A stretch of DNA of 64,000 nt, taken from NCBI RefSeq assembly GCF_022045235.1, contig NW_027266275.1, positions 71,858,001 through 71,922,000 on the forward strand, given 5' to 3'. Position 1 is the first letter of the stretch; each line of letters opens with the position of its first letter. Positions 5,207 through 63,398 of the stretch are shown one piece after another. The position numbers and the translations under genes are program-made. Below the pieces are notes generated by a model. The model made no database searches and was not told the origin of the DNA. It saw only the letters and a list, made by a program, of their open reading frames with translations. This DNA is from Haliotis cracherodii (Eukaryota).

Positions 5207-6457
5207 TCAAAAATATGCTATCTTAAGGAAACCAATCAAAGTTGTTATGATGAACAGCATGAAAAACAAACAAAAGAAAAGTTTGTTCATCATTCTGCTA
5301 ACTCGCTTCCAGGTCACTGATGGGGGATTCCATGAGTCCTTTGACATCCTTTCCTGTGTCAGGGTCTCCTGGTTTCCGACTGCAGGGGTGCCAAAGATGC
5401 ATCTTTCCCAGGCCCTTATTATACGACCCATCCATGAAGGAACAGGCCTGATGGCAGCGTCTCGATAAAACACCTGTGTGATCCAGATGGTCAGAAACAC
5501 GTAGATAGAGCTCATTACAAATTGGCCAACAATGAAGATAGTAAATACAGGTAAGGTGTCACCGTTCTGAGGCAGCAGTCCAGTGACGAAGGTCAGGGAT
5601 ACCATGAAAGACAGCAGCACTGTGATGGCAAAGGACAGCTTCTCTCCAGACTCCACAGGGATGAGGAACACCACCACATTGACTAATGCCAGCATCATGA
5701 CAGGCAGCAGAATTGTCAGTATAACTAGGGAGGACTTTCTCTTCAGTGTCATTTTGAAGTTTATAAATGGGTGAGGCATGTCGCTGGTTTCAAGGACAAC
5801 TCTTTGCGCAGATGTGTAAATAATATCCCATTGGCTGTTAGCGTTAAACAGGTCTAATCCTATAGAGTTATTGATCGGTTTTAAATCCACTTCTTTTAAG
5901 GTATTTCCCCAATCAAACGTACTGTAAGTACATTCTTGTTCATCCAAAGGAAAATTGGTAACATCCATTTGGCAGAAAGTCTTGAAGGTATCACCAGGTG
6001 CCCAATTCACAATTCCATTGGCTGTCACTTTCATGATCCCGAAGTCGAGTCCCAGGGGTTCAACACTATCCACGACGTTGTTAATAGTGATGTAAGGTCT
6101 CCACACCATCCCATAGTCAGGACTTATTTCACTGACTCCTCCATACTCGCTGGCGTTCCAAGTTAGGAACTCATCTTTCCAGATAACTAAGAAAAACCCA
6201 TTAGCTGTCACTGTCTGAGTTACTTCATCAAAATCAGACATGCTGAGAAGATAAAGTTGTAATGAGACCGTGATGGTGTCACTGCTATTCTTGACAGGTC
6301 TGACTTTGGGGTTGTTGTTTTTGATGATGTCATTGTGTAGTCGAAGTATATGGTGGTCATCCTGACCTCTAGTGGTCCCCAGTAACAACAATAGGTACAG
6401 TCCACATGTTACTACCTCCAGCCGATGCATCCCTACCTCCGTGTACAGCCGCAACAT
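5207..6457 (-). CDS. Intronless non-canonical nAChR-like Cys-loop ligand-gated ion channel subunit (subfamily A, locus 1)
   Basis: 416-aa uninterrupted ORF (alternative ATG at 6430). Signal peptide, Cys-loop CQMDVTNFPLDEQEC, M1-M3 with GEKLSFAITVLLS, short intracellular loop, MA/M4 WKRVSRMMNKLFF. No loop-C CC. Confidence 0.95.
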   Translation of the reverse strand: MLRLYTEVGMHRLEVVTCGLYLLLLLGTTRGQDDHHILRLHNDIIKNNNPKVRPVKNSSDTITVSLQLYLLSMSDFDEVTQTVTANGFFLVIWKDEFLTWNASEYGGVSEISPDYGMVWRPYITINNVVDSVEPLGLDFGIMKVTANGIVNWAPGDTFKTFCQMDVTNFPLDEQECTYSTFDWGNTLKEVDLKPINNSIGLDLFNANSQWDIIYTSAQRVVLETSDMPHPFINFKMTLKRKSSLVILTILLPVMMLALVNVVVFLIPVESGEKLSFAITVLLSFMVSLTFVTGLLPQNGDTLPVFTIFIVGQFVMSSIYVFLTIWITQVFYRDAAIRPVPSWMGRIIRAWERCIFGTPAVGNQETLTQERMSKDSWNPPSVTWKRVSRMMNKLFFCLFFMLFIITTLIGFLKIAYF

Positions 6458-13745: not shown

Positions 13746-14072
13746 AACATTGATCAGCGACTGGCAGTCCATCAGAACCCTATTAGGAAACTGGTCTCAT
13801 GGGTGCACTTACACATGGATCAAAGATTATTCTATGAATGTTAATGTTTCTCGTGGTTATTGTCATTACAGGTACAACATATTGAAATGTGTACACACAA
13901 TAGAGCATTCCATTATCCAAACTGTAGTTATGCTTGCATCAACACATCATCATTAATGGGAACCACTGTATATATACAGATCTTGTTTATTATTCATCAC
14001 TTGTATCAATATCATCCAGGCTTGCACATCATGAGACAGACGACGTTTACGTGTATGCTATGTCTAACTGGG

Positions 14073-15314
14073 ATGTACAAGAAACAAGAAGGATTTCCCT
14101 TGAATTTGAAACTTCATGGGTTGTGTTTTCTGTTCTTGCTGTTAACTGTCAAGGGTCAAGATGACCATCATATACATCAACTACACAATGACATCATCAA
14201 AAACAACAACCCAAAGGTAAGACCTGTCAAGAACAGCAGTGATGCTGTCACGGTCTCATTACAACTTCATCTTCTTAGCATGTCCGATTTTGATGACGTG
14301 ACTCAGACAGTAACAGCTAATGGGTTTTTCTTTGTGACCTGGAAAGATGAGTTCCTAACTTGGAACGCCAGCAAGTATGGAGGAGTCGGTGAAATAAGTC
14401 CTGACTATGGGATGGTGTGGAGACCTTACATCACTATTCGTAACGTCGTGGATAGTGTTGAACCCCTGGGACTCGACTTCGGAATCATTAAAGTGACAGC
14501 CAATGGAATTGTGACTTGGTTCCCTGGCGATACCTTCAAGACTTTCTGCCTAATGGATGTTACTAACTTTCCTTTGGATGAACAGATGTGTACTTACATT
14601 ACGTTAGATTGGGGACATAGTCTAGATGAAATTGATTTAAAACCGATCAATAATTCTATAGAGTTATCGTTCTTTAACCCTAACAGCCAATGGGATATCA
14701 TTGACTCATCTGCTCAGAGAGTGGTCCTTGAATACATCGGCAAATCATCTTCACTTATAAACTTCAATATGACACTGAAGAGAAAGCCATCCCTGGTGAT
14801 ACTGACAATTCTCCTGCCTGTCTTGATGCTGGGATTAGTGAATGTGATGGTGTTCCTCATTCCTGTGGATTCCGGGGAGAAGCTGTCCTTTGCCATCACA
14901 GTGCTGCTGTCTTTCACGGTATCGCTGTCTTTCGTCGCTGGACTGCTGCCTCAGAATGCTGACAGTATACCCGTATTTACTATCTTTATTATTGGCCTGT
15001 TTTTAACTAGCTCTATCTACGTGTTTCTGACCATCTGGATCGTGCAAGTGTTCTATCGGGACGCTGCCATCAGGCCTGTTCCCTCCTGGATAGGGCGTAT
15101 AACAAGTGCCTGGGAGAGATGCTTCTGTGGCACTCCTGCTGTTGGAAACCAGGAGACGGTGCCACAGGAAAGGATGTCGAAGGAATCATGGAATCCCCCA
15201 TCAATGACCTGGATGCGAGTCAGCAGACTGGCTGACAGTGTTTTCTTTTGTTTCTTTCTCTCGCTGTTCATCATGACAACAGTGATTGGTTTTCTTAAGA
15301 TAGCACATTTCTAA
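14073..15314 (+). CDS. Intronless non-canonical nAChR-like Cys-loop subunit (subfamily A, locus 2)
   Basis: Open frame. ATG 14073 (MYKKQEG..LCFLFLLLTVKG-QDD) gives 413 aa with a signal peptide. Cys-loop CLMDVTNFPLDEQMC, GEKLSFAITVLLS, four TMs, no loop-C CC. The frame is also open upstream to 13860, so the start is not certain. Confidence 0.95.
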   Translation: MYKKQEGFPLNLKLHGLCFLFLLLTVKGQDDHHIHQLHNDIIKNNNPKVRPVKNSSDAVTVSLQLHLLSMSDFDDVTQTVTANGFFFVTWKDEFLTWNASKYGGVGEISPDYGMVWRPYITIRNVVDSVEPLGLDFGIIKVTANGIVTWFPGDTFKTFCLMDVTNFPLDEQMCTYITLDWGHSLDEIDLKPINNSIELSFFNPNSQWDIIDSSAQRVVLEYIGKSSSLINFNMTLKRKPSLVILTILLPVLMLGLVNVMVFLIPVDSGEKLSFAITVLLSFTVSLSFVAGLLPQNADSIPVFTIFIIGLFLTSSIYVFLTIWIVQVFYRDAAIRPVPSWIGRITSAWERCFCGTPAVGNQETVPQERMSKESWNPPSMTWMRVSRLADSVFFCFFLSLFIMTTVIGFLKIAHF

Positions 15315-15414: not shown

Positions 15415-15960
15415 TCAGTGTGTTACACATCTATCACTGTCTTCTGTAGATGTATCAGTGTGTTATATATTCAAGACTGTGTCTTCTGTTAAAGTATCGG
15501 TGTATAACATATCCATCACTGTCTTCTGTTGATGTATCACTGTGTTATATATTCAAGACTGTGTCTTCTGTTGAAGTATCAGTGTGTTACATATCCATCA
15601 CTGTCTTCTGTAGATGTATCATTGTGTTATATATTCAAGACTGTGTCTTCTGTTGGAGTATCAGTGTGTTACATATCCATCGCTGTCTTCTGTTGAAGTA
15701 TCAGTGCGTTACACATTCAAGACTGTGTCTTCTGTTGAAGTATCGGCGTATAACATATCCATCACTGTCTTCTGTTGAAGTATCAGTGTGTTACACATTC
15801 AAGACTGGGTCGTCTGTTGAAGTATCAGTGTGTTACATAGTCAAAACAGTGTCCTCTGTTGACGTGTGCTTCATATTCAATGATTAGTAGTATGTTGACG
15901 TTTCAGTGTGTCACATGTCTTCTGTTGACCTATCATTGTCTTACATATTCAACATTGTGT
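15415..15960. repeat. Minisatellite of alternating ~40/42-bp units just 3' of locus 2
   Basis: GTATCAGTGTGTTATATATTCAAGACTGTGTCTTCTGTTGAA alternates with GTATCGGTGTATAACATATCCATCACTGTCTTCTGTTGAT. Confidence 0.9.
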
Positions 15961-16034
15961 CGCGTGTTGACATTTACATTTGATACCATGTTCATTCTGT
16001 CTCCTGTATCTCATGCTTTTCGTAATGGGGAAAA

Positions 16035-21200: not shown

Positions 21201-22299
21201 CAAATTTAAAGGGATTATGTTGGTATGAAGTCTACCTGTAATGTCAGGAGGCCAGAATATGACATTGGAGATGACAGTCTCATAGTAAGAAGAGTCAATA
21301 TTTACTTCTATGGTGAAGGTCTCAGATGTGTCGTAATGGCGTCATGTGTTCATATGCAATTTTAATAGTAAAGCTCTATGCTAGTTTATACTCTTATCTC
21401 TGCCCCATGAACCTGTGTGAGGGAGGGTTGTGTTACATCTCAGTTACCGCCATCACAGAATTCCTCACCGTAGCATGTATTCAAGTCTCTATCAGACACC
21501 TAAGATATATCAGGAGCAGTGATTCACGCCGTTGTAGGTAAGATGCCAAAACGTCCGCCTTTGACACATAGTAACTAGATCTACCCTGGACGTGAACAAA
21601 GACACTGAACTATGTCCCCGAAGCATTCACATTGCATGGTTGCATTTCAGGATATCGATTAGCTTCTATTCAGTAGGCATGTGGGCCATATTGACATTCA
21701 CTCTAGGACTAATGTATCTATCAGCTTCAATTCAGTACGTAGTATGTGTGAGAGAGAAAAATACATAAAGAAATACAGAATGTTGGAGGCGCTTTCTGAT
21801 CAGTCATTACATTTGATAGGTCTCAGAAGAGTAGAGCTACAGTTTGTTTGGAGCAAAATGACACAGGTGAATCGTTAATGTCCTCAGAATGAAGTAAAAG
21901 TCAATAGAACCTTCGAAGCAAACTATTACCAAGAATGTGAACTTTAAATGTTTGGATTCAAATATTGTTACCCTGGAAGCGTTATTGGCCTAAAAATATG
22001 ACTGAAAATCAGGAGCGTTTTCTTAAAGGAACTTACCTTCGGCAAAATAGAATTTCCTTTTTCGACTTACACAATAAATGTATTCATTTACATGATATAA
22101 CCATGACATATCCATTCTTAAGAAATGAACTTTTGTTAAGTTATGTATGGCCTTTGCCATTTGCTGTTATCAACTCAACCTAACATACATAAAATTTGAA
22201 AATATACTCTTAGTATCATAGAGCTCTACAGCTTTAAGCATCAAATGGCAAATGTCCTACTGTTACATTAAAAGTGATAAATTGTTATAGGATTGATAT

Positions 22300-23360
22300 T
22301 TTATGACAAAAGACCACTGTTGTCATGGTACGTATCTAGGAAAAAAAACAAAAAAACATGTCAGCCATTCTGTTGACCCGCCCCGAGGTCATTGATGAGG
22401 ATTGACATGATTCATTCAACATCATTATAGAGTGTACTCGTTTCCCACAGATGAAGTGCCAAAAAAACATTTCTCCCAGGCCCTTGCCATACGCCCCATC
22501 CAGGAGGGAACGGTCCTGGTGGCAGCGTTTCGATAGAACATCTGCACGACCCATATGCTCAGAAACACGTAGACTCATTACAAACAGGCCAATAATTAAG
22601 ATAGTTACCACGGGTATACTGTCAGCGTTCTGAGGCAGCAGTCCAGTGACGAAGGTCAGGGATACCATGAAAGACAGCAGCACTGTGATGGCAAGGGACA
22701 GCTTCTCCCAAGACTCCAATGGAATGAGGAACACCACCACATTGACTAATACCAGCATCAGGACAGGCCGGAGAGTTGTCAGTTTCATCGGTGAGGGTTT
22801 TCTTAACATCTAACAGTGGCCATCAAGAACAACACTTGCAGATTACGTGTTTATGATATTCCATGGACTGTTTGGGTGAAAGGAGGCTAGACCTATTGTA
22901 TAACTAATTGGTTTTATATTAACTTCATCATGTCCAACATGTCCAATCAAATATAAAGTAAGAACTGTCCCGTTCATCCAAAGGAAAGTTGGTAACATCA
23001 AATTGGCAGAAGGTTTTGAAGACTTTTCCCGACATCCAAACCACAAGTCCATTAGCTCTAACTTTTATGATCCCAAAGTCGATTCCAACAGAACCAAGAC
23101 TATCCAACTTGTTCTGAACATCTATGCTAGTTCGCCACACCATCCTATTTCACTGTCACTTCCATACTCGATGGTGTTCCAGGTTAGGAACTCATCTATC
23201 CAGGAGACACAGAAACGCCCCATGTCAGTGTCTGAGTAAATTCAAACTCAGACAAGGTTGAATTTTAACAAGACCATTATGGTTTTATTACCGATCCTCA
23301 TAGGATGGATGGTTTGGTTATTGTGTTTGAGGATGGCACTGTGTAGTTGATGTGGACACT
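22300..23360 (-). pseudogene. nAChR-like pseudogene (subfamily A, locus 3)
   Basis: Fragments HQLHSAILKHNN.., MVWRTSI..IDFGIIKVRANGLV, FCQFDVTNFPLDE, RKPSPMKLTTLRPVLML..EKLSLAITVLLS spread over several frames with stops and deletions. Confidence 0.9.
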
Positions 23361-24083: not shown

Positions 24084-24540
24084 TACTACGATAGATGGTC
24101 TCACTGGGACCTAAACACATAGCACGTGGAGTGACTACAATAGATGGTCTTACTGGAACCTAAACACATAGCACGTGAAGTGACTACAATAGATGGTCTT
24201 ACTGGGACCTAAACACATAGCACGTGAAGTGACTACAATAGATGGTCTTACTGGGACCCAAACACATAGCATGTGAAGTGACTACAATAGATGGTCTTAC
24301 TGGGACCTAAACACATAGCACGTGAAGTGACTACAATAGATGGTCTTACTGGGACCCAAACACATAGCATGTGAAGTGACTACAATAGATGGTCTTACTG
24401 GGACCTAAACACATAGCCCGTGAAGTGACTACAATAGATGGTCTCACTGGGGCCTAAACACATAGCCCGTGAAGTGACTACAATATATGGTCTTACTGGT
24501 ACCTAAACACATAGCCGGTGAAACGGCTACAATAGATAGA
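24084..24540. repeat. 49-bp minisatellite, about 9 copies
   Basis: GACTACAATAGATGGTCTTACTGGGACCTAAACACATAGCACGTGAAGT (copies at 24133, 24182 and onward). Confidence 0.95.
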
Positions 24541-25177
24541 CACACTGGGGCTTTGATTGTTACAGTGACTCGTTTGCAAATACCGTGGGTGAATAAGTAC
24601 AATTCGACATACAACAGAAGTCAATAAGTGTCTTAGCAATTTCATGATCATCATCATATGCTGCTGCCGTTGTCGGAAACAACTGCAGACACATTCCACA
24701 CGGTGCAGACATTGTTATACATGCAACTGAATTCTTGGATCGGTTCAAAAGGAATGCGTGCCGTTTATTCGATTGTTTTCCGTCAGAGTTTTAATACAGC
24801 TTACTGACATTGTGCAATTTGAAGTGGTGTGTGGAAACAACTATCTGCTGTGTATACAGCAAATATTGAAATCACGTCCAATGTCCCATCCCTTGATGGA
24901 AACAAGGTATATTGACACAAGTTCGTCTATTTCAGGGGGTATGTTATAATGTGATGATGATGATATTTTCTATAACGATACATTTACACCACTTTATACG
25001 AAGAACAGTTACCTTTTCCGTGAATATAAATGATTTGTCGAAGCGATTAATTTATCAATGAGGAGCGTAGGGTCAATTCTTGGTGCCTCTCATACTAAGT
25101 TTGATGGAAGCGACCTCTCTTTAAACTCTTTAAATCCAACCCCTATTACCTAACTTCATGAAGCTAAAGCAAGTCAT

Positions 25178-28759: not shown

Positions 28760-29714
28760 TTTTACAGCGTCTCGATTGAACACTTGCATGATCCAGATGG
28801 TCAGAAACACATAGATGGAGCTCATCACAAACAGGCCAAGAAGGAAGATAGTAAATACGGGTATACTGTCAGCGTTCTGAGGCAGCAGTCCAGTGATAAA
28901 GGACTGGGAGACCGTGAACGACAGCAGCACTGTGATGGCAAAGGACAGCTTCCCCCCAGACTCCACAGGAATGAGGAACACCACCACATTGACTAATCCC
29001 AGCATCAGGACAGGCAGGGACGGCTTTCTCTTCAAGGTCATATTGAAGTATACAAATGAAAAAGATCCCATATGATCAAAGACAACTCTTGCAGACGATG
29101 TGTTAAAAACATCCCATTGACTGTTTGTGATAAGGAATTGTTGTCAAATAAAGTTACTCACAGGTTTAAAATTTTGTTCATGTATGGGGAGTCCCCAAAC
29201 AGACAATTTGTAAAAACAGTTGTGTTCATCTGATGGAAAGTTGGTAACATACATTTGACAGAGAGTCTTGAAAATATCTGATGGTTGCAAAGTCACCAAA
29301 CCGTTTGCCTGAACATTAATTATAGCAAAATTTAGTCCGGGGGGTGAAGCCGTATCCACCACGTTGCTAACCGTGATTTGAGGTCGCCACACCTTCCCAG
29401 AGTAAGGACTTATTTCACGGGCTCCTCCATAATCGCTTGCGTTCCAGGTTAGGAACTCATCTTTCCATGACACAGCAAAGAAGCCATTGGATATCACTGT
29501 CTGAGTAACAGCAACAAAATCAGAGATACTAGTCAGGTGATTGTCTATCCAGACAGTTGTGGTGTCACTGCTGTTTCTGAAAGGGCGGATCAAGGGATTG
29601 TTGTATTTGATGATGTCGTTGTGGAGTCGACGTATATGATGGTCATCCTGGACAGTGGCAGTTGTCTGACGCATCAGTAGACACAGTCAAGAAAGCAAAG
29701 GCATTTTTATACAT
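28760..29714 (-). pseudogene. nAChR-like pseudogene (subfamily A, locus 4), 3'-truncated
   Basis: Frameshifted leader from ATG 29714; ECD with CQMYVTNFPSDEHNC and a stop at 29144; in-frame deletion in M1 (KRKPSLPVL); GEK changed to GGK; homology ends just after M3 (FNRDAVK). Confidence 0.9.
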
Positions 29715-31070: not shown

Positions 31071-31777
31071 CTTTCTGTTCAGTCCTGGTAGTAACACTTC
31101 AGTCTTGTACCCACATCACCCTTGCTGTTCAGTCCTGGTAGTAACACTTCAGTCTTGTACCCACTTCACCCTTGCTGTTCAGTCCTGGTAGTAACACTTC
31201 CGTCTTGTACCCACATCACCCTTGCTGTTCAGTCCTGGTAGTAACACTTCAGTCTTGTACCCACATCACCCTTTCTGTTCAGTCCTGGTAGTAACACTTC
31301 AGTCTTGTACCCACCTTACCCTTGCTGTTCAGTCCTGGTAGTAACACTTCAGTCTTGTACCCACATCACCCTTGCTGTTCAGTCCTGGTAGTAACACTTC
31401 AGTCTTGTACCCACATCACCCTTGCTGTTCAGTCCTGGTAGTAACACTTCCGTCTTGTACCCACATCACCCTTGCGGTTCAGTCCTTGTAGTAACACTTC
31501 AGTCTTGTACCCACATCACCCTTGCTGTTCTGTCCTGGTAGTAACACTTCAGTCTTGTACACACATCACCCTTGCTGTTCAGTCCTGGTAGTAACACTTC
31601 AGTCTTGTACCCACATCACCCTTGCTGTTCAGTCCTGGTAGTAACACTTCAGTCTTGTACCCACATCACCCTTGCTGTTAAATCCTGATAGTAACACTTC
31701 AGTCTTGTACCCACTTCACCCTTGCTGTTCAGTCCTGGTAGTAACACTTCAGTCTTGTACCCACTTCACCCTTGCTG
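31071..31777. repeat. 50-bp minisatellite, about 14 copies
   Basis: CTTGCTGTTCAGTCCTGGTAGTAACACTTCAGTCTTGTACCCACATCACC repeated. Confidence 0.97.
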
Positions 31778-32445: not shown

Positions 32446-33699
32446 TTACTTATATATCTTGAACACAGTGACAGCCATCAGTGACACGACGAGGAGGAGG
32501 AATAACCAGAAAAAGAATTTGTCCATGGCTTCACTCACTCTTTTCCATTGCACTTCACGTCTGGGAAGCCTTTCACTTCCTCGCGTTGACTTGTCAATGT
32601 ACCCACTAGGAGATATGTCCGACACATCCTGACCCCCGGTTGTGTGTATCCTGTTGCTGCCACAACATCCCTTCTGACCGCCCAGCAGTCTATGCACCCA
32701 GAGTGGAACGGGCCACTTGTTAGAGTCTCTATGGAATACCTTGATGACCCAGATAGTAAGCAGCACATAGAGAGAGCTCAAGAGGAACAGTCCAGCCATG
32801 AGAAGGGTGAATATTGACAGGCTGTCAGCACTTTGGGGCAGCATGTTGGTGATGAAGGACATGAAAACAGCAAATGACAGCAGCACTGTGATGGAGAAGG
32901 ACAGTTTCTCCCCCGACTGCACTGGGATGAGGAACACGACGATGTTGAGGAAGGAAAGAAGCAGGACAGGCATCACGACAGTCAGGATCTTCATGGACGG
33001 TTTCCTCGTCAGCTGGAGATGGTAGGTGATGTGGGCGATCTGAAAGAATGACACAAATTGTGTGTGTCGAGTGGCCGAGGTGTTGGTGATGTCCCACTCG
33101 CTGTTCACATTGTAAATGTCGAGACCAATGGAGTTGTCGACTGGGAATAGATCAACGGTGTCGATGGTGTCAGCCCAAACGAAAATATTAAAGGAACATG
33201 TCTGAACGTCGAAGGGGAACTTGGTTACATCCATTTTACAACTTGTCTTGAATGTGTCTCCAGGATACCAGGTTAGGCTTCCAGTGAAGAAGAGAACCAA
33301 GATGCCAAAATCAAGGCCCAAAGGCTTCATCTTGTCCACCGTGTTCTGCACCGCTACCCTCGGCTTCCATACCCGATCAAACGCTGGCCTGATGTCCGTC
33401 ACACCGCCATATAGAGTTGGGTTCCATGTCAGGATTTCATCATCCCATGTGACCTCCATGTAACCGGTGGAAGCTAGAGCCTCTGAGACTTCACCAAACT
33501 CTGTAATAGCCACAAGGTTAAAGGTGATGGAGACTTGGGTCACATGTGTTTTGTTACGAACAGGGCGGATGTTCGGGTTGTTAGACTCGATGATGTCACT
33601 GTAGAGTTTCTGCTGAAGGATGTAGTCATCAACACAGTCACCGACCCCAGTTATTGCCAGCAGTGTAGCAACCAAATGTATCCAAATGTCTTCTCGCAT
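32446..33699 (-). CDS. Intronless non-canonical nAChR-like Cys-loop subunit (subfamily B, locus 5)
   Basis: Open ORF. Likely start MREDIWIHL.. at 33699 (upstream ATG at 33729). Cys-loop CKMDVTKFPFDVQTC, GEKLSFSITVLLS, four TMs; loop C TRHTQFVSFFQIAH lacks CC. Confidence 0.95.
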   Translation of the reverse strand: MREDIWIHLVATLLAITGVGDCVDDYILQQKLYSDIIESNNPNIRPVRNKTHVTQVSITFNLVAITEFGEVSEALASTGYMEVTWDDEILTWNPTLYGGVTDIRPAFDRVWKPRVAVQNTVDKMKPLGLDFGILVLFFTGSLTWYPGDTFKTSCKMDVTKFPFDVQTCSFNIFVWADTIDTVDLFPVDNSIGLDIYNVNSEWDITNTSATRHTQFVSFFQIAHITYHLQLTRKPSMKILTVVMPVLLLSFLNIVVFLIPVQSGEKLSFSITVLLSFAVFMSFITNMLPQSADSLSIFTLLMAGLFLLSSLYVLLTIWVIKVFHRDSNKWPVPLWVHRLLGGQKGCCGSNRIHTTGGQDVSDISPSGYIDKSTRGSERLPRREVQWKRVSEAMDKFFFWLFLLLVVSLMAVTVFKIYK

Positions 33700-34760
33700 A
33701 ATTTTGAAACGGATGAATCGCAAACACATGCGTGATAGATCTATAGCTGTGTCATAATGTGTGTTGTGATAATTTCAGCTATAGTTCACCGGTCCTCTGT
33801 AGACTTCTCGATGGTAGCACTGTGAAATCATTGACCATGCGTGTCTGTTTATGGTTATAACGATCAACTAAAGAATCCTGCCACTCCCATTTCCACTATT
33901 TAATATAAGAAGTAAATCTTCCTTTTCCAGAAAACGATTGATGACAGATATATACATTCAATATGTTGATAGTAAAGAGCTGCTTCCATCTTGACACAAT
34001 GACAATGACATTTTTAGCCTTTAAAACATTCCAGCGATTATTCGTTCGATGTTTGGACTTGTTTTACTTCTGTGGTAACAAATGAATTTCGATTACCAAT
34101 AATTGATCAGGAGCTGAGATATCACTCTGCGACTCCATGGTTACATACATGCTAAAAGAGTAACTGAGGGGTTTTAGAATAGGATCACATGACAGATCTC
34201 TATGTTTTCAATAATGTGAAAACATACCAACATTACTTGCTCCGTAGGAACACAAGACTGTAATCCAACCTTTACAAATCCTCCAACACCAATACAATGG
34301 TATCTCCCTGATGTTAATATCTATCCAAGCATTAAACTTTTCTTCCACAAAAGAAGGTAAGCAATTTATTTGAGCTATGTGCCAACTGTACTTCGATTAT
34401 ATATAACATGGCTAATGATTATTGGATCAGTATAGGACGAATGTATTTTCCCCTGCTGTTAATGTCTTCATGAAAGCAAATATCTCTCCACTGGTAGCCA
34501 AGCAAACCACTGACATATTTGTTCCTGGGAGTGTTAACACCAATGATAATCCATTCATTCCTACTCCGACTGTCGTTTTACCAAGCCACTTATTAATGTG
34601 TTTTGCACATGGTGGATTTTGAAAATGAACATTCCGATGGAGTTTTCTTCTCAGGAAAAAAAGCACTTAAAGCATACACCTCTATTGCTGTCACCCTCGC
34701 GAACTGTTGTGCATCTCTACTGGGGAATGAGAATAGCCATTAAGTGTTTAGTAAACTACC

Positions 34761-35160
34761 AGACAATATGGGGTTACATCAAAAGTTTCGAAATTGTGAT
34801 GACAGTTATCAGATATATTCACGTGATTGAGAAGTAGCGTTTGCTTATTTTCAACACATGCGTATTTTGGACTTATAACACTACATTGATACATGTATAC
34901 ATTGAGTTAAAATCGCAAAGGCAGATTTTAGAAATTTTATGGAAGCTATTTTAAGATATGATCCAATCTGATTCTATGTGATGTCGATAGAAACGGTTAA
35001 GATATTGACTGCAGAGGACTTGGGTCACGGATAGATTTGACCATTTTATCACATTTGATACTGTTTATATCATTATTGCAATGTGTTCCACATATTATTA
35101 ATTGTGACATGTATTATATAAGGGATATCTTGAAACAGGCTTCATTCAGCTCCCATTGAG
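34761..35160. repeat. ~400-bp direct repeat, copy 1
   Basis: Near-identical to 35879-36278 (CATCAAAAGTTTCGAAATTG...CAGCTCCCATTGAG). Confidence 0.95.
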
Positions 35161-35607
35161 CAGAATCACAATTCCATCTGCTGTCACTTTAATGATCCCG
35201 AAGTCGAGTCCCAGAGGTTCAACACCATCTTCCATATTACGAACAGTTATGTTAGATCTCCACACCATCCCATAGTTTGGACTTATTTCACTGACTCCTC
35301 CATACTCGCTGGCGTTCCAAGTTAGGAACTCATCTTTCCAGAAAACTAAGAAAAACCCATTAGCTGTCACTGTCTGAGTCACTCCATCAAAATCAGACAT
35401 GCTGAGAAGATTAAGTTGTAACGAGACCGTGATAGTGGTACTGCTGTTCTTGACAGGTCTGACTTTTGGGTTATTGTTTTTTATGATGTCATTGTGTAGT
35501 CGAAGTATATGATGGTCATCTTGACCATTGACATTTAACAGTAAGAACAACAAACACAACCCATGAAGTTTCAAATTCAGGGGAAATCCTTCTTTTTTCT
35601 TGTACAT
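35146..35607 (-). pseudogene. 5'-half nAChR-like gene fragment (subfamily A, locus 6)
   Basis: ATG 35607 MYKKKEG.., signal peptide and ECD to KVTADGIV, then runs into unrelated repeat sequence before the Cys-loop. Confidence 0.85.
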
Positions 35608-35878
35608 CCGAGCTGCAAACAGCGTACACGTACACGTCATATGTTTCATGATGTGCAATCCTGGATGACATTGATACAAGTGACGAATGATAAACAGGAG
35701 CTGTGTTTATACAGTGGCTACCATTAATTTTGGTGTGTTGATGCAAACATAACCACAGTGTGGATAATGGCATGATCTATTTGTGTTGCTAATTTCTATG
35801 CCAAATGCTTCATGTTATACTTGTTCAATGACAATAGCCATGACAAACACAATATCCATAGCATAGACAATAGAGGAT

Positions 35879-36278
35879 AGACAATATGTGAAACCATCAA
35901 AAGTTTCGAAATTGTGATGACAGTTATCAGATATATTCACGTGATTGAGAAGTAGAGTTTGCTTATTTCAACACATGCGTATGTTGGACTTATAACACTA
36001 CATTGATACATGTATACATTGAGTTAAAATCGCAAAGGCAGATTTTAGAAATTTTAAGGAAGCTTATTTTAAGATGTGATCCAATCTGATTCTATGTGAT
36101 GTCGATAGAAACGGTTAAGATATTGACTGCAGAGGACTTGGGTCACGGATAGATTTGACCATTTTATCACATTTGATACTGTTCATATCATTATTGCAAT
36201 GTGTTCCACATATTATTAATTGTGACATGTATTATAAAAGGGGTATCTTGAAACAGGCTTCATTCAGCTCCCATTGAG
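35879..36278. repeat. ~400-bp direct repeat, copy 2
   Basis: Near-identical to 34761-35160. Confidence 0.95.
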
Positions 36279-36863
36279 GATTGGCTGCACATTCCACAGT
36301 GCCAGACTCCATAAGCCGGATGCTCAGACAATGCTGGAATAAGGTGCTATACCAGGGTATTAAACATCAGTAGCGGTTATAAGAAGATAGGGAAAATATT
36401 TGCAACATGATCTTCAATAGTAAATTTTGAATGAAGATTCACAGTAGATATTGTTGTAGACGACCACTTAGTGCTAAGATCACTATAGAATGGGTCCCAA
36501 TGTGTTAACAGCCAACACGGGAGATTGTTCATAAAGTGGTTGAATTTTATTCAATAATACAGCCAGCAAGGTGTTAGTGATCAAGGTTAAGGATAAGTGC
36601 TCCAGAATCAACATGGTAACATATGGAAACTTCAACAGAAGACACAGTCTTGAATATGTGACACATGGATACATCAACAAACTACTAAGTATTGAATATG
36701 CAACAGAAGAGACAGTTTTGAATATGTAACACACACCGACATCACCAGAAGACACAGTGATGAATATGTAACACACTGAAAAGAAGATACAGGGGTGAGT
36801 ATGTGACATATGGAAATGGAAAAGTGTATCATTCAGTTTACTAGTTTACAGGTCTTTGGCGTG

Positions 36864-37696
36864 TTAGAAATGTGCTATCTTAAGAAAACCAATCACTGTT
36901 GCTATGATGAACAGCGAGAGAAGGAAACAAAAGAAAACACTGTAAGCCAGTCTGCTGATCTGCATCCATGTCATTGATGGGGGATTCCATGATTCCTTTG
37001 ACATCCTTTCCTGTGTCAGGGTCTCCTGGTTTCCAACAGCAGGAGTGCCACAAAAGCATCCCTTCCAGGCCCTTGTTATACACCCCACCCAGGAGGGAAC
37101 AGGTCTGATGGCAGCGTCTCGATGAAACACCTGCACGATCCAGATGGTCAGAAACACATAGATAGAGCTCATTACAAACAGGCCAATAATAAAGATAGTA
37201 AATACGGGTATACTGTCAGCATTCAGAGGCAGCAGTCCAGTGACGAAAGACAGGGTTACCGTGAAAGACAGCAGCACTGTGATGGCGAAGGATGTCGAGT
37301 CGAGGTTCAACACCATCTACCATATTACGAACAGTTATGTAAGTTCTCCACACCATCCCATAGTCTTGACTTATTTCACTGACTCCTCCATACTCGCTGG
37401 CGTTCCAAGTTAGGAACTCATCTTTCCAGAAAACTAAGAAAAACCCATTAGCTGTCACTGTCTGAGTCACTCCATCAAAATCGGACATGCTGAGAAGATT
37501 AAGTTGTAACGAGACCGTGATAGTGGTACTGCTGTTCTTGACAGGTCTGACTTTTGGGTTGGTTTTTTTTCATGATGTCATTGTGTAGTCGAAGTATATG
37601 ATGGTCATCCTGACCATTGGCATTCAACAGTAAGAACAGCAAACACAACCCCTGAAGTTTCAAATTCAGGGGAAATCCTTCTTTTTCCTAGTACAT
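36864..37696 (-). pseudogene. nAChR-like pseudogene (subfamily A, locus 7) with a large internal deletion
   Basis: ATG-TAC-TAG nonsense at codon 3; +1 frameshift in the A-run at ~37563-37570; junction at ~37293 joins GVEP.LD directly to SFAITVLLS (about 408 nt missing relative to locus 2, 14478-14885); intact M2-M4 and KIAHF-stop. Confidence 0.92.
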
Positions 37697-39219
37697 CCGA
37701 GCTGCACACAGCGTACACGTAAACGCCACATGTTTCATGATGTGCAAGTCTGGATGACATTGATACAAGTGACGAATGATAAACAGGAGCTGTGTTTATA
37801 CAGTGGTTCCCATTAATTTGGTGTGTTGATGCAAACATACCTGCAGTTTGGATAATGGCATGATCTATTTGTGTTACAATTTGTGTTTCTATGCCAAATG
37901 CTTTATGTTATACCTGTTTAATGACAATAGCCATGACAAACACCAAAATCCATAGCATAGTGTTTAACCCATGCGTGAATGCGCCCATGAGACCAATTTC
38001 CTCATAGGGTTCTGATGGACTGCAAGTCGCTGATCAATATTCCCACATTGTTCCATGAAAGGAGAATAACAGTTAATGACGTAACGCCTTGATGTGCAGT
38101 GAGTAAATTGAGGAGTTGTTAATATTTAATTACAGGTTTGGTTTGGCTCGGCTTTCGGGTGGCTTTGTGTTAGCGTTGCGCGGCGTGACGTGACAATAAC
38201 AAAGTTTGACCGGCTGCACCAGAAGTTAACTGGTAAGTTGATCACCAGACTGATTTTGAAATAATGTCTGATCAAATGGTTAAGGCAACAACTGAATATT
38301 TTTGTCAGGCATCGATTGATTTTAGTACCAAAAGTTTGACTTTACTGTTTTTAAAACAAACTTAGCTGCAGTAGAAAATGTAAGCAATGATCGGATTTTC
38401 CGAAGTTAAAACCAAAGTAAATACTTAATCATAACGTATATCAAACGCTGACATTCTGATTTTCAGAAGTTACCAATCAATATTACAAAGTTACAACTGT
38501 CGATTCCCAAATTGAAACAATATGTCAATCAAGAAATCTGTACAAAAAAACAATGTGTGTGAAACCAACACATCACCCACAAGTGGTACACAATCAACAA
38601 TTCATTACAAAATTCACTAAGTTTACAAATTAGCACAAATTACTGCACAGCATTCATAATGGCAGTAAACAATAGAGTGGTAGTACAATATACAATGGCA
38701 ATGAATACTATGATGGCAGTGGTCAGTGGTCAAATACCAAAATACGGTGGTGATAGCGATAGTCAGTGATGATAATGCATATTCACCCAGGGGTGACTGG
38801 TCAACCTTCCGAGATGGGTAAGAAGGGGAATCAGGGATGATGAGCGATCCTCACACGAAGGCTGCTCTTGACATGATGAAAATGCGTGTATGTCCCGCAA
38901 AGAGAAATTTTCATATGTTTCTATAACATACTCTCACCGTCTGCAGTTTACGGACCGGATGTTTTCACACCCCACTAGCCAAGTTTCTTCCCAGCGCGTG
39001 ACACATTCGTTACACTCTCTGCAAACACGCTATCGTTGTAAGGAGCTTGCACACTAGCATCTTAAAATAGTAACTTACTGACGACTGCTTACATTTCCTA
39101 AATACATTGCAATGAGCATCTACCGAATCTCAACAGAAACAACGTAACGCCGTTAAAATCGTTGTTAAACAATAAAATACACTGCCATATGACATAACCA
39201 AAGTAAATACAGAGGCCTT

Positions 39220-40300
39220 GATTGTTGTCACCCTGATCAAATATCTTGGACAAGAGTCTTATGATGAGCCTCGACATCTTCAAAGAAGGAGCAAGCTTGA
39301 TGGCACCTCAAAAGTTGTGAAGTGTAAACACAAAGGTCAGGAGCTGCAGGAATATTGATCGACTTAAAGGGCAAGTTGTCAATTGGAATGTTATACAGCA
39401 TTGTTTTTTTCGTCACTCTGAATCTTTATGCGTAGATCTTAATATAAAACACATTTTATATGTTGCCAATACGTGCAAAAAACTATCTGAAAACGAAACA
39501 TATAAGCGAAAAAGGGCGCAAAATTTCTTCCCTTGGGGATGTCTACTTTTTGCCTGCATGTACTATTCCCCAAATGTCACATGGATGTTATCAATGAGGA
39601 AGTCCATCATTTCATGTATTGTTTTCTCAGTAAATGTAGAAGATATTTGCTTTCAGTTTTGACAACTCGTCCTCAGGGGCAGTGGCGTACTTCAAAGAAA
39701 ACAGTCAAATGTTTTGACACATTTGAACTTCTTATCTTTTTCTGAGATTACAAACATTCAGGCACATCCTTCTTTTTTACTCAAATATTTCCCGTGAGTA
39801 TACAGAAACACATTTATTGAATGTCTTAATTATCATGGTTAATTGATGAAACAGTACTTTGGAATCCATTACAACAGAAGAATGGACGAACTTGTCAGTG
39901 TTTGGGGTTTGACTAATGCTATGCCTGAATTCGAAAAAACAACACTTACAGTATCTTCTTATGTTGCCTAATTGATGAAAAAACATGCTGTTTCATGTCA
40001 TTGAGGCTGAACAAATGAACAAATGAAACTCCATTGCTACGTTTGTAACAAAAACATCTTTTAAAAACAGAAATGGTCCTTCGCTTGTATTTAGCATTGG
40101 AATCAACTACCAAAGAGCTGTCTCCAGGTTTTAGAGTCAAGCCAAAAGTCGATAGTACCGATGCATGGTTTGGGAAAAGTTGTTCCTAATACGTTACTAG
40201 CCTTACACGGGGCATAGTTTGATACCAAGTTCTGTTCTTAATCAATGGTTTTATAACTTGAGGCTGGAACACAATGAATATATTTAAATTCTCTGTTTGA
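39220..40300 (-). mobile_element. Highly decayed Penelope-like (Naiad-type) RT
   Basis: LIDNIHVTFG..KVDIPKGRNFAPFFA (~39490-39600) and NIPAAPDLCVYTSQLLR (~39300-39360); 5' limit approximate. Confidence 0.65.
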
Positions 40301-40717
40301 AGAGGACCCCTAACATCTGGTTCGGAATGGCACGGGAAGAGTGCACCAGGTGCGCTTCGCTCTCAAGTAAAGAAGGGGACATCGGCGACCCACTTCTCGA
40401 TCTTGGGACATACCTTCATCACGAAACAACTCAGTGCGTACTCCTACACCTGTTCCAGCGTCACAACCCAAAGCTAAGGTTGACACCCAAGAACAATTCA
40501 AATGATAAGCTCTGCTTTATTACATATATTCTGATTTTTAGCGATATTAGAAACCCCTAGATTTAACACAATAGTATCATTACTGTTGTCATTGTTTGTA
40601 GGTACTTAACACTTGCATTATTGACCTTTCTTGTTTCAGTATAAAGATGTCCATATAACTTCCATGTGAAACCTGATCCATTATTGATCATATTCTCCAG
40701 GTGATGGTCTAATTTCA

Positions 40718-41971
40718 TTACAGACATATCTTGAACACAGTGACGGCCATCAGTGACACGACAAGCAGGAGGAATAACCAGAAAAAGAATTTGTCCATGG
40801 CTTCACTCACTCTTATCCATTGCACCTCACTTCCGGGCAGCCTTTCACTTCCTCGCGTTGACTTGTCAATGTCCCCACTAGGAGATATGTCCGACACATC
40901 CTGACCCCCGGTTGTGTGTATCCTGTTGCTGCCACAACATCCCTTCTGCCCGCCCAGCAGTCTACACACACAGAGTGGAACAGCCTGCTTGCTAGAGTCT
41001 CTATAGAATACCTTGATGACCCAGATAGTAAGCAGCACATAGAGAGAGCTCAAGAGGAACAGCCCAGCCATGAGAAGGGTGAATACTGACAGGCTGTCAG
41101 CACTTTGGGGCAGCATGTTGGTGATGAAGGACATGAAAACAGCAAATGACAGCAGCACTGTGATGGAGAAGGACAGCTTCTCCCCCGACTGCACTGGGAT
41201 GAGGAACACGACGATGTTGAGGAAGGAAAGAAGCAGGACAGGCATCACGACAGTCAGGATCTTCATGGACGGTTTCCTCGTCAGCTGGAGATGGTAGGTG
41301 ATGTGGGCGATCTCGGAGAAAGATGCATATCTTGTGTGTCGAGTGGCTGAGGTGTTGGTGATGTCCCACTCGCTGTTCACATTGTAAATGTCGAGACCAA
41401 TGGAGTTGTCGACTGGGAAGAGATCAACGGTGTCGATGGTGTCAGCCCAAACGAAAATATTAAAGGAACATGTCTGAACGTCGAAGGGGAACTTGGTTAC
41501 ATCCATTTTACAACTTGTCTTGAATGTGTCTCCAGGATACCAGGTTAGGCTTCCAGTGAAGAAGAGAACCAGGATGCCAAAATCCAGGCCCAAAGGCTTC
41601 ATCTTGTCCACCGTGTTCTGCACCGCTACCCTAGGCTTCCATACCTGATCAAATGCTGGCCTCATGTCCGTCACACCGCCATATAGAGTTGGGTTCCATG
41701 TCAGGATTTCATCATCCCATGTGACCTCCATGTAACCGGTGGAAGCTAGAGCCTCTGAGACTTCATCAAACTCTGTAATAGCCACAAGGTTAAAGGTGAT
41801 GGAGACTCGGGTCACATGTGTTTTGTTACGAACAGGGCGGATGTTCGGGTTGTTAGACTCGATGATGTCACTGTAGAGTTTCTGCTGAAGAATGTAGTCA
41901 TCAACACAGTCACTGACCCCGGTGACTGCCAGCAATATAACAACCAAATATATCCTGTCGTGTCGGATCAT
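40718..41971 (-). CDS. Intronless non-canonical nAChR-like Cys-loop subunit (subfamily B, locus 8)
   Basis: 417-aa ORF with signal peptide, Cys-loop, GEK-M2 and four TMs; close paralogue of locus 5; loop C TRHTRYASFSEIAH. Confidence 0.95.
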   Translation of the reverse strand: MIRHDRIYLVVILLAVTGVSDCVDDYILQQKLYSDIIESNNPNIRPVRNKTHVTRVSITFNLVAITEFDEVSEALASTGYMEVTWDDEILTWNPTLYGGVTDMRPAFDQVWKPRVAVQNTVDKMKPLGLDFGILVLFFTGSLTWYPGDTFKTSCKMDVTKFPFDVQTCSFNIFVWADTIDTVDLFPVDNSIGLDIYNVNSEWDITNTSATRHTRYASFSEIAHITYHLQLTRKPSMKILTVVMPVLLLSFLNIVVFLIPVQSGEKLSFSITVLLSFAVFMSFITNMLPQSADSLSVFTLLMAGLFLLSSLYVLLTIWVIKVFYRDSSKQAVPLCVCRLLGGQKGCCGSNRIHTTGGQDVSDISPSGDIDKSTRGSERLPGSEVQWIRVSEAMDKFFFWLFLLLVVSLMAVTVFKICL

Positions 41972-42534
41972 TTTTACAGGGTCAACTCACTCAAGTTTAT
42001 CAGTTCAATAGCTGTATCATGATAAGTGCGTAGTAGCGCACTGGTGCTGTGTGGTCTTCACGATGAGAGAAATGACTGTCCCTGTTGTCTATGTCTAGGT
42101 CTGTAATCAGCTTGAAATTCCTGCCTCTCGCCGAACCACTGTTTGAAATATTAGAAGTAATTGTGCTTTGTCCAGAAAGGGATCGATGACAGATCTATCC
42201 GATTCATTACTTGGTTCCGCGTCAGTGATATCTTTCAAAAAACCTCCGAGGTATTTCACTCCTTTGATAGCACATGAAGAACAAATGCATTTCGATTCAC
42301 AATAATTGATTATGAATGAGATAGTGCTATGTTGTTCCGTGATAATATACTCTTTTAAAAAAGTAGGGGATCATGAAATATAAATGTAAATGCCATGTAC
42401 TAGCACAAAGATCAATGTTTACGACAAACATCCTATGCCTGAACGTTTGTCTGTAGAACTTAACACCAACACATATCCGATAGTTTGTGTCAATTTTATT
42501 GATTCTGCTTAACATACAGTTGTGATTAACTTGA

Positions 42535-45500
42535 GGGATTGCCTAAAAGTCGGGCCGGGCCGGGCCAAGACGGGCCAAAGTGTTACTGGCTAATTACTTC
42601 ATTATTCGGCGATCATACCTACACATAATTGATGAAACATACACACATGACATTAATGAACGATCACCAAACAAAAAAGTGCAACATAAATAAGTAATTC
42701 GGAGTAAATCGCTTGAAAACAAGAAAGTGGAGCTGTGTGTAAGCGTCGCTGATCTTGGTAACATGTAAAAGAGCAATCGTTAAACGAAATAAGATTTGAA
42801 ACGTATCAAATACTTCTAGCTATCGTGATACAAATTTCCATCTGTCGGCATAGCGTTTATATTTATAGGAACGTACTTATATAAGTAACTACTACTTTAT
42901 AATGTCACTGATCGTCGTATTTAAAGCAGACACGTTGGTTAAAGTAGACCTCTTCTCTCTATACTCTCAACAGTCACACAAGTGTTCGCTCCGACTTGGC
43001 CCGGGCTGTCAAAATCAACTTACACCTCACAGATGTATCATCAAATGAATTCACATCTACAGATTAGTGTTATATCTACCTAAATACCACTTTATAATGT
43101 CACAAATGGCTGTAATTAAAGAAAACAAGGTGCTCAAAGTGAAGCCCTTTTCTCAACATAGTCTCTATCAGAAGTGTTTGGCTTGTGTTGGGTCCCACTT
43201 GGCCCGGGCCGTCAAAATCAACTTTAAACACACAGATGTATCTTCAAATGTGTTTACATCTATAGATTAGTGTTCTATCTACCTATACACCACTTTATAA
43301 TGTCCAGGTGTATCGCATTTAAAGAAATCTGCGCCGTTAAAGTGAGGCATTTTTACTTATTTTCTTAAGAAAATCCAAGTCAGAAATGTTCGGTCATACT
43401 TGGCCCGGGCTGTCAAAATCAACTTAAACCTCACAGATGTATCATCGAATGTGTTTACATCTATTGATTAGTATTATATCTACCTATACACCACTTTATA
43501 ATGTCACGGTACATCGTATTTAAAGAAAACAAGGGCTCAAAGTGAAGCATTTTTACTGTATTTTCTTAAGAAAATCCAAGTCAGAAGTGTTCGGTCCGAC
43601 TTGGCCCGGGCTGTCAAAATCAACTTAAACCTCACAGATGTATCATCAAATGGATCCACATCTTTCGATTAGTATTATATCTACCTAAATACCATTTTAT
43701 AGTGTCGCTGTACTTAAAGAAAACAAGGGGCTCAAAGTGAAGCCCTTTTCCCTCTACATTCTCAACATAGTCTCTATCAGAAGTGTCAGAAATGTTCGGT
43801 CCGACTTGGCCCGGGCTCTCAAAATCAACTTAAACCTCACAGATGTATCATCATCTATAGATGTAAACACATTTGAAGATACATCTGTGTGTTTAAAGTT
43901 GATTTTGACGGCCCGGGCCAAGTCGGACCCAACACAAGCAAAACACTTCTGATAGAGACTATGTTGAGAATGTAGAGGGAAAAGGGCTTCACTTTGAGCC
44001 CCTTGTTTTCTTTAAGTACAGCGATCTGAGACACTATAAAGTGGTATTTAGGTAGATATAATACTAATCGAAAGATGTGGATCCATTTGATGTTACATCT
44101 GTGAGGTTTAAGTTGATTTTGACAGCCCGGGCCAAGTTGGACCGAACACTTCTGACTTGGATTTTCTTAAGAAAATACAGTAAAAATGCTTCACTTTGAG
44201 CCCCTTGTTTTCTTTAAATACGATGTACCGTGACATTATAAAGTGGTATATAGGTAGATAGAACACTAATCTATAGATGTAAACACATTTGAAGATACAT
44301 CTGTGTGTTTAAAGTTGATTTTGACGGCCCGGGCCAAGTCGGACCCAACACAAGCAAAACACTTCTGATAGAGACTATGTTGAGAATGTAGAGGGAAAAG
44401 GGCTTCACTTTGAGCCCCTTGTTTTCTTTAAGTACAGCGATCTGAGACACTATAAAGTGGTAATTGGGTAGATATAATACTAATCGAAAGATGTGGATCC
44501 ATTTGATGATACATCTGTGAGGTTTAAGTTGATTTTGACAGCCCGGGCCAAGTCGGACCGAACACTTCTGACTTGGATTTTCTTAAGAAAATACAGTAAA
44601 AATGCTTCACCTTGAGCCCCTTGTTTTCTTTAAATACGATGTACCGTGACATTATAAAGTGGTATATAGGTAGATATAACATTAATCTATAGATGTAAAC
44701 ACATTTGAAGATACATCTGTGTGTTTAAAGTTGATTTTGACGGCCCGGGGCCAAGTCGGACCCAACACAAGCAAAACACTTCTGATAGAGACTATGTTGA
44801 GAATGTAGAGGGAAAAGGGCTTCACTTTGAGCCCCTTGTTTTCTTTAAGTACAGCGATCTGAGACACTATAAAATGGTATTTAGGTAGATATAATACTAA
44901 TCGAAAGATGTGGATCCATTTGATGATACATCTGTGAGGTTTAAGTTGATTTTGACAGCCCGGGCCAAGTTGGACCGAACACTTCTGACTTGGATTTTTT
45001 TAAGAAAATACAGTAAAACTGCTTCACTTTGAGCCCTTGTTTTCTTTAAATACGATGTACCGTGACATTATAAAGTGGTGTATAGGTAGATATAATACTA
45101 ATCAATAGATGTAAACACATTCGATGATACATCTGTGAGGTTTAAGTTGATTTTGACAGCCCGGGCCAAGTATGACCGAACATTTCTGACTTGGATTTTT
45201 TTAAGAAAATAAGTAAAAATGCCTCACTTTAACGGCGCAGATTTCTTTAAATGCGATACACCTGGACATTATAAAGTGCTTATAGGTAGATAGAACACTA
45301 ATCTATAGATGTAAACACATTTGAAGGTAAATCTGTGTGTTTAATGTTGCTTTTGACCGCCCGGGCCATGTGGGACCCAACACAAGCCAAACAATTCTGA
45401 TAGAGAGAATGTAGAGGGAAAAGGGCTCCACTTTTGAGCACCTTGTTTGCTACTGCAATATGAAACACTAAAGTGTTATTTAGGTAGGTATAATATTCTA

Positions 45501-46010
45501 TAGATGTAAAGTATATGATGTCATTTTAGAAGAGATTTGACAGTTATTAACACGTGTCGTGTCAGTCCTATGACATTCGCGAATATCCACTTGCAGAATA
45601 CATCCTGTGTTGTTTTTACATGAAGTAGTAAAGGTTTATTAGGGATGCCAAACACGTTAATTAATGAAAGAAGAGTAGTCAAAACACGGTCATTTCGAAT
45701 TCCTGCCCAGGACATCACGCCCCTGCACGCTAAGGTCGGTGAGAAACCTTCTCATCAAAGTAAAGACACAGTCAAGACACTGACTTTTCCGGGTGGACTC
45801 TCGGTATGTAGCTATAATTATCAGTTTATTACATTGCTGAAGATGCATTTTGATTCAAACTCAATTAAATGAGCAAAACTAAACGTTTCTGGACAATTGA
45901 GATCTGTCTAGATATGCACGTTTCGTTTTATTATTCTGCAATCCATTTTTAGTATTACCCGCTGGCCCGGCCCGGACCGACTTTTCTTGGCCCGACTTTT
46001 AGGCGGTCCC
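42535..46010. mobile_element. Non-autonomous foldback / Mutator-like DNA transposon with internal inverted tandem arrays
   Basis: TIRs GGGATTGCCTAAAAGTCGGGCC and GGCCCGACTTTTAGGCGGTCCC; 9-bp TSD TTAACTTGA at 42526-42534 and 46011-46019; ~200-215-bp units in opposite orientation either side of ~43857. Confidence 0.88.
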
Positions 46011-48723: not shown

Positions 48724-62791
<14,068 letters not shown>

Positions 62792-63343: not shown

Positions 63344-63398
63344 CATGTGTTCGACACTGCAGATTACGTATGTGGGCCTGCAAGTTTGTATGACCATC

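Follow-up and report, generated by a model that had tools for sequence, protein, structure and literature searches.

How can two neighbouring genes be almost identical along most of their coding sequence and still carry sharply different versions of one short loop? This question is raised by a 64,000-nucleotide stretch of the abalone Haliotis cracherodii (assembly GCF_022045235.1, contig NW_027266275.1, positions 71,858,001 to 71,922,000; hereafter the window), which holds eight loci resembling nicotinic acetylcholine receptors (nAChRs), four of them intact single-exon open reading frames (ORFs) and four broken copies. Two of the intact genes, locus 5 (32446..33699) and locus 8 (40718..41971), both on the minus strand, are intronless paralogues that each encode an nAChR-like Cys-loop subunit of 417 amino acids. 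The pattern at their loop C is genuine, has strong statistical support and recurs in a second species. We consider it probable that the two genes form an old tandem pair homogenised by gene conversion, in which selection keeps a 20-bp island of locus-specific differences at loop C.

Divergence between the two genes is concentrated at loop C

No gaps are needed to align the mature proteins. In the extracellular domain (codons 24-233, numbered here and below after locus 8) the two copies differ at 20 of 630 bases and at 9 of 210 residues (55, 69, 103, 109, 214, 215, 216, 219 and 220), the same residue count as in the first-pass annotation of this DNA. Five of the nine lie within codons 214-220, where locus 5 reads QFVSFFQ and locus 8 RYASFSE. 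At the base level, nine differences, three of them silent, separate 33041..33060 in locus 5 from 41313..41332 in locus 8 (minus strand; strict bounds 33042-33060 and 41314-41332, or 19 bp). This clustering, likewise described before, withstood recounting and permutation: nine differences in 20 bp were reached in 0 of 200,000 random scatterings of the 20 differences, and in 0 of 50,000 when all 45 differences of the mature coding sequence were scattered. The two longest identical stretches between the copies are a 151-bp tract upstream (41421..41571, equal to 33149-33299 in locus 5; minus strand), which covers the Cys loop and loop B, and a 136-bp tract directly 3' of the patch (41178..41313, equal to 32906-33041; minus strand), which covers beta10 and M1.

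The assignment of the patch to loop C also held. In alignments with human alpha3, human alpha7 and Torpedo alpha it coincides with their Tyr-x-Cys-Cys tip, and it forms the tip of the beta9-beta10 hairpin (202-216/219-232) in an AlphaFold model whose mean pLDDT is 77.5 (87 for residues 211-220) and whose TM-score to the best-ranked nAChR alpha chains in Foldseek is 0.75-0.78.

Two parts of the earlier description need narrowing. Near-identity is limited to the mature coding sequence; divergence is strong in the signal peptide and on either flank. Loop C, in turn, is the sharpest cluster of differences but not the sole one, as the M3-M4 region contains two more. A broader cluster after M3 (40949..41005; locus 5 32677-32733; minus strand) has 10 differences in 57 bp, with at most 5 in any 20-bp window as against 9 in loop C, and mostly does not sort by locus in Haliotis rufescens. 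Further on, a 60-bp segment (40814..40873; locus 5 32542-32601; minus strand) has 6 base differences and encodes the locus-sorted residues 367, 380, 381 and 386, close to where the homogenised zone ends on its 3' side.

The pair is older than its coding sequence suggests

The flanks tell of a much older duplication than the coding sequences do. The upstream flank of locus 8 (41972..42211) and its counterpart at locus 5 (33700..33965), both on the minus strand, differ by 29% over 234 aligned bases and cannot be aligned further out, and the downstream flanks differ at 21% of 84 aligned bases, whereas only 9 of ~198 silent sites outside loop C differ across codons 24-322 (~4.5%). Flank pieces from a second species (organism-B) differ from the window at just 8 of 239 and 4 of 156 bases, which makes the duplication about ten times as old as the split between the species. 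For the Californian abalones, a common ancestor at 4.3 Ma has been estimated (bioRxiv 10.1101/2024.09.16.613283). An absolute date through a pedigree mutation rate, which would fall well before the 36-Ma Pacific split, was set aside since such a rate is perhaps not commensurate with divergence in the flanks. H. rubra (P0040) and H. asinina (P0003) yielded only one orthologue each. The H. rubra signal peptide mixes residues of locus 5 and locus 8, so the duplication may lie near or before the Pacific split.

H. rufescens carries both genes: P0002 (XP_046378338.2), the orthologue of locus 5, reads QFVSFFE at the patch, and P0001 (XP_046378330.2), the orthologue of locus 8 at 97% identity, reads KYASFSE. 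We compared these two with loci 5 and 8 at the protein level, taking H. rubra and H. asinina as outgroups. Residues 172, 180 and 349 sort by species, 172 and 180 lying within the 151-bp identical tract, which is thus a putative conversion tract. The outgroups share the H. rufescens residue at 172 and 349, so the change at these positions is a new one that spread to both copies in the window. In loop C, by contrast, 215, 216 and 219 sort by locus, as does the contrast of Gln with a basic residue at 214. At 55, 109, 254 and 330 the outgroup residue survives in one copy, and the orthologue of that copy has the residue of the other locus, which suggests further one-way conversions in both lineages. 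Such a mixture of species-sorted (type-C) and locus-sorted (type-N) sites has been described in other duplicates (PMC2588116, PMC3924837), and judged by these sites the abalone pair appears to bear the signature of conversion around a protected island.

The composition of the patch points the same way. In a 14-codon window over loop C the proportion of differing silent sites (pS) is 0.36 and that of replacement sites (pN) 0.18, with a pS of ~0.045 elsewhere (Fisher p 0.003 on rounded site counts). Nine of 20 is in keeping with divergence at the level of the flanks, with a binomial p of 0.09 at 29% and 0.016 at 21%. With three silent differences among nine, the patch looks old rather than accelerated. 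The first-pass annotation had offered two accounts of the hotspot, diversifying selection on ligand specificity and exclusion of loop C from conversion; for this pair, the diverged flanks, the two kinds of sorted residues and a pS above pN all favour the second.

Divergence of loop C across the family

A search of the genome, in which 150 of 319 candidates were scored, gave 129 matches with open frames of at least ~300 codons outside the window, in 98 stretches. Together with the window's four, these yield 132 distinct ORFs, so the genome contains at least 132 long nAChR-like ORFs, mostly clustered. Their tree contains 39 sister pairs, of which 30 pass an identity cut-off of 80% and 26, the focal pair among them, one of 90%. 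In the 25 other pairs at or above 90%, loop C has 3.1 times the pN found elsewhere in the domain (bootstrap 1.4-5.7). The corresponding ratio for silent divergence, 0.8, shows no elevation, and of all seven-residue windows 214-220 itself is the most divergent. The effect is uneven, with 6 of the 25 pairs individually significant (uncorrected).

A codon mixture was fitted to 26 clades (94 sequences, focal pair excluded) on within-clade alignments from which gap-adjacent columns had been dropped (13 in loop C, 45 elsewhere in the extracellular domain and 30 transmembrane). It places 39% of loop C sites at a replacement-to-silent rate ratio (omega) above 1, with twice the log-likelihood difference (2dlnL) at 37.4, or 19.9 with a free branch multiplier, and about no sites in M1-M3 (2dlnL 0). 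For loop F (locus-8 residues 184-199) the share is 6% (12.0); positive selection may act on a few of its sites, and in close pairs it is the second most variable region, at a pN/pS of 0.90.

Two modes can be told apart among individual pairs. L039/L040 (G000:C8:18533788-18543875) have unalignable flanks, near-identical coding sequences and 11 differences in the 60-bp bin of loop C, with none in the bins on either side. The L002 pair resembles the focal pair in its diverged flanks and loop C peak, although more weakly. The L089 pair, with similar flanks and a loop C peak made up mainly of replacements, looks like a young duplicate under selection. Separately, L039/L040 show 10 differences in one earlier bin, and both copies have Phe at the position of the first Cys-loop cysteine and may therefore be secondary Cys-less subunits. 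In L053/L054 (G000:C12:71841408-71854141), directly upstream of the window, 4 of 7 extracellular residue differences fall in loop C; compared with P0011/P0015 of H. rufescens, residues 110 and 182 sort by species, and a Ser/Pro difference in loop C sorts by locus. L054 includes, letter for letter, the protein P0042, which is labelled H. cracherodii.

Receptor class and binding site

All four intact proteins of the window carry PF02931 (Neur_chan_LBD) and PF02932 (Neur_chan_memb); for loci 5 and 8 the E-values of PF02931 are 1e-39 and 4e-41, PF02932 scores above its cut-off, and there are four transmembrane helices. The pair has a Cys-x13-Cys loop with the conserved Pro, and all 36 aligned sequences share C154, P162, D164 and C168. 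The GEK motif before M2 (G263-E264-K265) and the 9' Leu (L274), which together mark cation-selective Cys-loop channels, align with those of alpha3 and alpha7; both subunits are thus predicted from their sequences to form cation channels.

The binding site is only partly conserved. The vicinal cysteines have no counterpart, as S217-F218 of both copies align with the Cys-Cys of alpha3, which makes the subunits non-alpha; the names 'alpha-3-like' and 'alpha-7-like' given in databases reflect similarity only. At the positions that, by canonical numbering, we take to be the aromatic box (loop A Tyr, loop B Trp, two loop C Tyr and loop D Trp), the pair retains the loop B Trp as W175, and the first loop C aromatic is Y215 in locus 8 and Phe in locus 5. 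The remaining positions are altered: loop A Tyr to Q118, the second loop C Tyr to I221 or a gap, and loop D Trp to Y80. Among solved structures, 8bx5 and related entries ('Acetylcholine receptor') match the pair with an E-value of 5e-36; we take these entries to be Alpo4. A complex prediction for the two extracellular domains scored 0.01 and is evidence neither way. Loop C bears pocket aromatics and moves upon ligand binding (PMC10338036).

Proposed explanation and its alternatives

According to the explanation that we favour, ectopic conversion across 8.3 kb, acting in both lineages since their split, would keep the coding sequences alike, while selection would remove those conversions in which one loop C overwrites the other, presumably because the animal benefits from keeping both versions. 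An old, locus-specific island of ~20 bp would thereby persist at the tip of loop C. Its differences (Tyr versus Phe; charged R/K..E versus Q..Q/E) are predicted to change which ligand or inhibitor is accepted, or how well. An early adaptive phase before the island formed is possible and belongs to this explanation. We infer conversion strongly as the homogenising process, and selection moderately as the reason why the island persists.

Several observations weigh against this reading. Only three residues sort cleanly by species, and at the protein level only, while eight mature residues outside loop C (103, 336, 367, 380, 381, 386, 416 and 417) sort by locus as well; six of these eight lie close to the 3' end of the homogenised stretch. 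Loop C is not frozen between species: over six orthologue pairs, matched by similarity and without P0017, it differs at 6 of 84 residues and the remainder at 42 of 1172 (p 0.13), and one residue in each of the two patches has changed since the species split. The vicinal cysteines being absent, loop C may not cap a ligand if the subunits are structural, in which case it could face a non-binding interface. Across the family, of the 24 pairs that differ at all, only 11 have more divergence in loop C than elsewhere in the domain, and pooled loop C pN over gene-wide pS is 1.11 with a bootstrap interval (0.53-1.91) that includes 1. The codon mixture also places 12% of sites in the rest of the extracellular domain above an omega of 1 (2dlnL 28.2); it is a home-made approximation of M7/M8 without a bootstrap null and with kappa at the edge of its grid, and it is open to inflation by conversion or multi-base mutations.

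The two ideas of the first-pass annotation therefore fare differently at different levels. An excess of replacements at loop C across the family stands as far as the first rank of 214-220 and the 3.1-fold pN go, but does not extend to most pairs. Diversifying selection draws moderate support from the same ratio and from the mixture, but the pooled interval speaks less clearly, and in the focal pair pS exceeds pN. Both ideas apply, conversion exclusion to the pair and diversification to the family.

The alternative that survives best dispenses with selection: conversion homogenises the copies, a tolerant surface loop diverges by chance, and its mismatches then stop conversion tracts. A pooled loop C omega near 1, the absent vicinal cysteines and the widely varying length and sequence of loop C over the 132 ORFs all fit such a neutral escape. 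We simulated mutation and conversion over 900 bases (36 settings x 500 runs), keeping only runs with 7-24 differences outside loop C (observed 14); the simulation is crude, with a fixed duplication age and without population genetics. With loop C constrained like the rest, 0 of 2649 retained runs produced nine or more differences within 20 bp of the loop; with loop C unconstrained, 1 of 1631 did. Unconstrained loops combined with mismatch-stopped tracts gave 14 of 1019 over all such settings, with 4 of 79 in the worst cell. Depending on the model, the neutral probability of a locus-sorted cluster at 214-219 ranges from 0 to ~5%. Mixtures with omega at or below 1 fit loop C worse, even with the free branch multiplier, and a second old pair, L039/L040, has the same island at loop C. 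On these models, neutral escape is unlikely but possible.

An imported patch is less probable still. A short conversion from a third paralogue or a lost divergent allele, as in the micro-conversion of the major histocompatibility complex (MHC), would account jointly for the silent and replacement differences within a sharply bounded 19-bp span. However, no donor for either patch was found elsewhere in the genome at two or fewer mismatches (24-base patterns, each matching its own locus only; common words may be missed by this search), and no loop C among the 132 ORFs resembles either patch. Such an import would, moreover, need to have happened before the two species separated and to have withstood conversion ever since.

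We give little credence to a young duplicate in which positive selection acted on loop C in a burst, without any conversion. Five replacements within seven codons suit such a history, and the L089 pair offers a parallel within the family. The flank divergence largely refutes it for loci 5 and 8, as do the presence of both loci in H. rufescens, the species-sorted residues and a pS above pN in the patch.

That the copies are falsely duplicated haplotypes or an assembly error, the latter a possibility named in the first-pass annotation, is practically excluded despite the high coding identity at a spacing of 8.3 kb, since in reads from four of 21 sequencing runs (the run marked as a possible source was left out) all nine locus-5 patch letters stand on a single contig of run X5, from a different study, the locus-8 form is present in run X2, separate contigs carry each locus's own flanks in 4 of 4 runs, and H. 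rufescens has both proteins. In two runs of the second species (organism-B), the listed differences include the base changes that P0001 predicts at 41331, 41434, 41458, 41215 and 40954.

The reads yielded further observations. Contig depth over the coding region is about twice that over the flanks in all four runs; depth being no measure of copy number here, the separation of the copies was argued from the flank contigs. One contig of X5 has the locus-5 letter at 40992 and, 13 bases on, that of locus 8 at 41005, a weak, single-contig hint of a recombinant or converted haplotype in another animal. In X2, depth over 40919-41035, after M3, is 20 for the locus-5 form and 8.4 for the locus-8 form; the signal is noisy, and the imbalance might reflect a segregating conversion tract.

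Relation to known systems

The mechanism is a known one, that of opsin-type conversion islands, here proposed for a pair of Cys-loop receptor genes. Exon 5 of the human red and green opsins and the Drosophila transporter pair CG18281/CG17637 are likewise old duplicates in which species-sorted sites surround a locus-sorted cluster, and there too the peak lies at a functionally suggestive place (PMC3924837, PMC2588116); this pattern is known as the Teshima-Innan signature. The opsin island contains residues that tune colour sensitivity, whereas the abalone pair is an intronless pair of ion-channel genes with an island of ~20 bp and a predicted effect. We found no report of loop C hotspots or conversion in abalone nAChR-like genes, or of conversion islands in Cys-loop receptors, in a search that most subscription papers lay outside.

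As single ORFs in tandem arrays, loci 5 and 8 fit the expanded intronless nAChR-like genes of molluscs (Jiao et al. 2019, PMC6896357), which are similarly accompanied by broken copies and have lost canonical alpha binding residues; the main text of that study mentions neither gene conversion nor positive selection, abalone or loop C. The chemotactile receptors (CRs) of cephalopods are also intronless and nAChR-derived, and their pocket is reported, for those of octopus, to be under diversifying selection (PMC11526382, PMC13174522). The abalone pair differs from CRs in retaining the loop B Trp; no CR entry appears among its best 60 solved sequences or among the Foldseek matches listed, and a tree with CR sequences was not built. 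Alpo4 of Alvinella pompejana (PMC10338036) is another orphan lophotrochozoan nAChR-like protein without the loop C vicinal disulfide and with some pocket aromatics, and the tip of its loop C moves on ligand binding. It is an annelid gene described as standing apart from the well-populated families, and only a distant relative of the abalone pair.

A wider idea, which we put forward as a tentative and rather unlikely extension, is that the more than 130 intronless nAChR-like genes form a gastropod chemosensory repertoire, parallel to the chemotactile receptors of octopus, with loop C as a short, interchangeable specificity cassette, loci 5 and 8 being one channel that seven residues tune to two ligands. 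In this scheme loop C would diversify under positive selection in young duplicates, and in old ones it would be kept as an island proof against conversion.

The findings bear on what the large, orphan families of intronless nAChR-like genes in molluscs do. They point to loop C as the part varied first by evolution, which suggests that binding matters despite the missing hallmarks of alpha subunits. The pair comes close to a natural swap experiment, with one scaffold, two species and two conserved versions of loop C, so ligand screens and chimera tests should be cheap and easily interpreted. It would also add a Cys-loop receptor to a short list of conversion islands, and it calls for caution in two respects: short-read data fail to keep these copies apart, and judged by coding similarity they look far younger than they are.

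Other contents of the window

The other two intact, intronless genes belong to a sister subfamily: locus 1 (5207..6457, minus strand), with ~44% identity to locus 5, and locus 2 (13887..15314, plus strand), in inverted orientation. Four broken nAChR-like copies (22294-23353, 28760-29690, 35146-35649 and 36864-37668, all on the minus strand) contain stops, frameshifts or deletions, and two more nAChR-like loci lie directly upstream of the window. The nearest named relatives of the intact proteins are Haliotis proteins. Locus 5 has a further in-frame ATG at 33729.

The segment at 37.3-38.0 kb is 93% identical to 35200-35866, and 34761-35160 recurs at 35879-36278 with 96.5% identity. Tandem arrays, with periods taken from self-BLAST offsets, occupy 15415-15970 (82 bp), 24085-24551 (98 bp), 31071-31777 (~50 bp), 42878-45520 (complex), 57768-60432 (52 bp) and 63368-64000 (38/76 bp).

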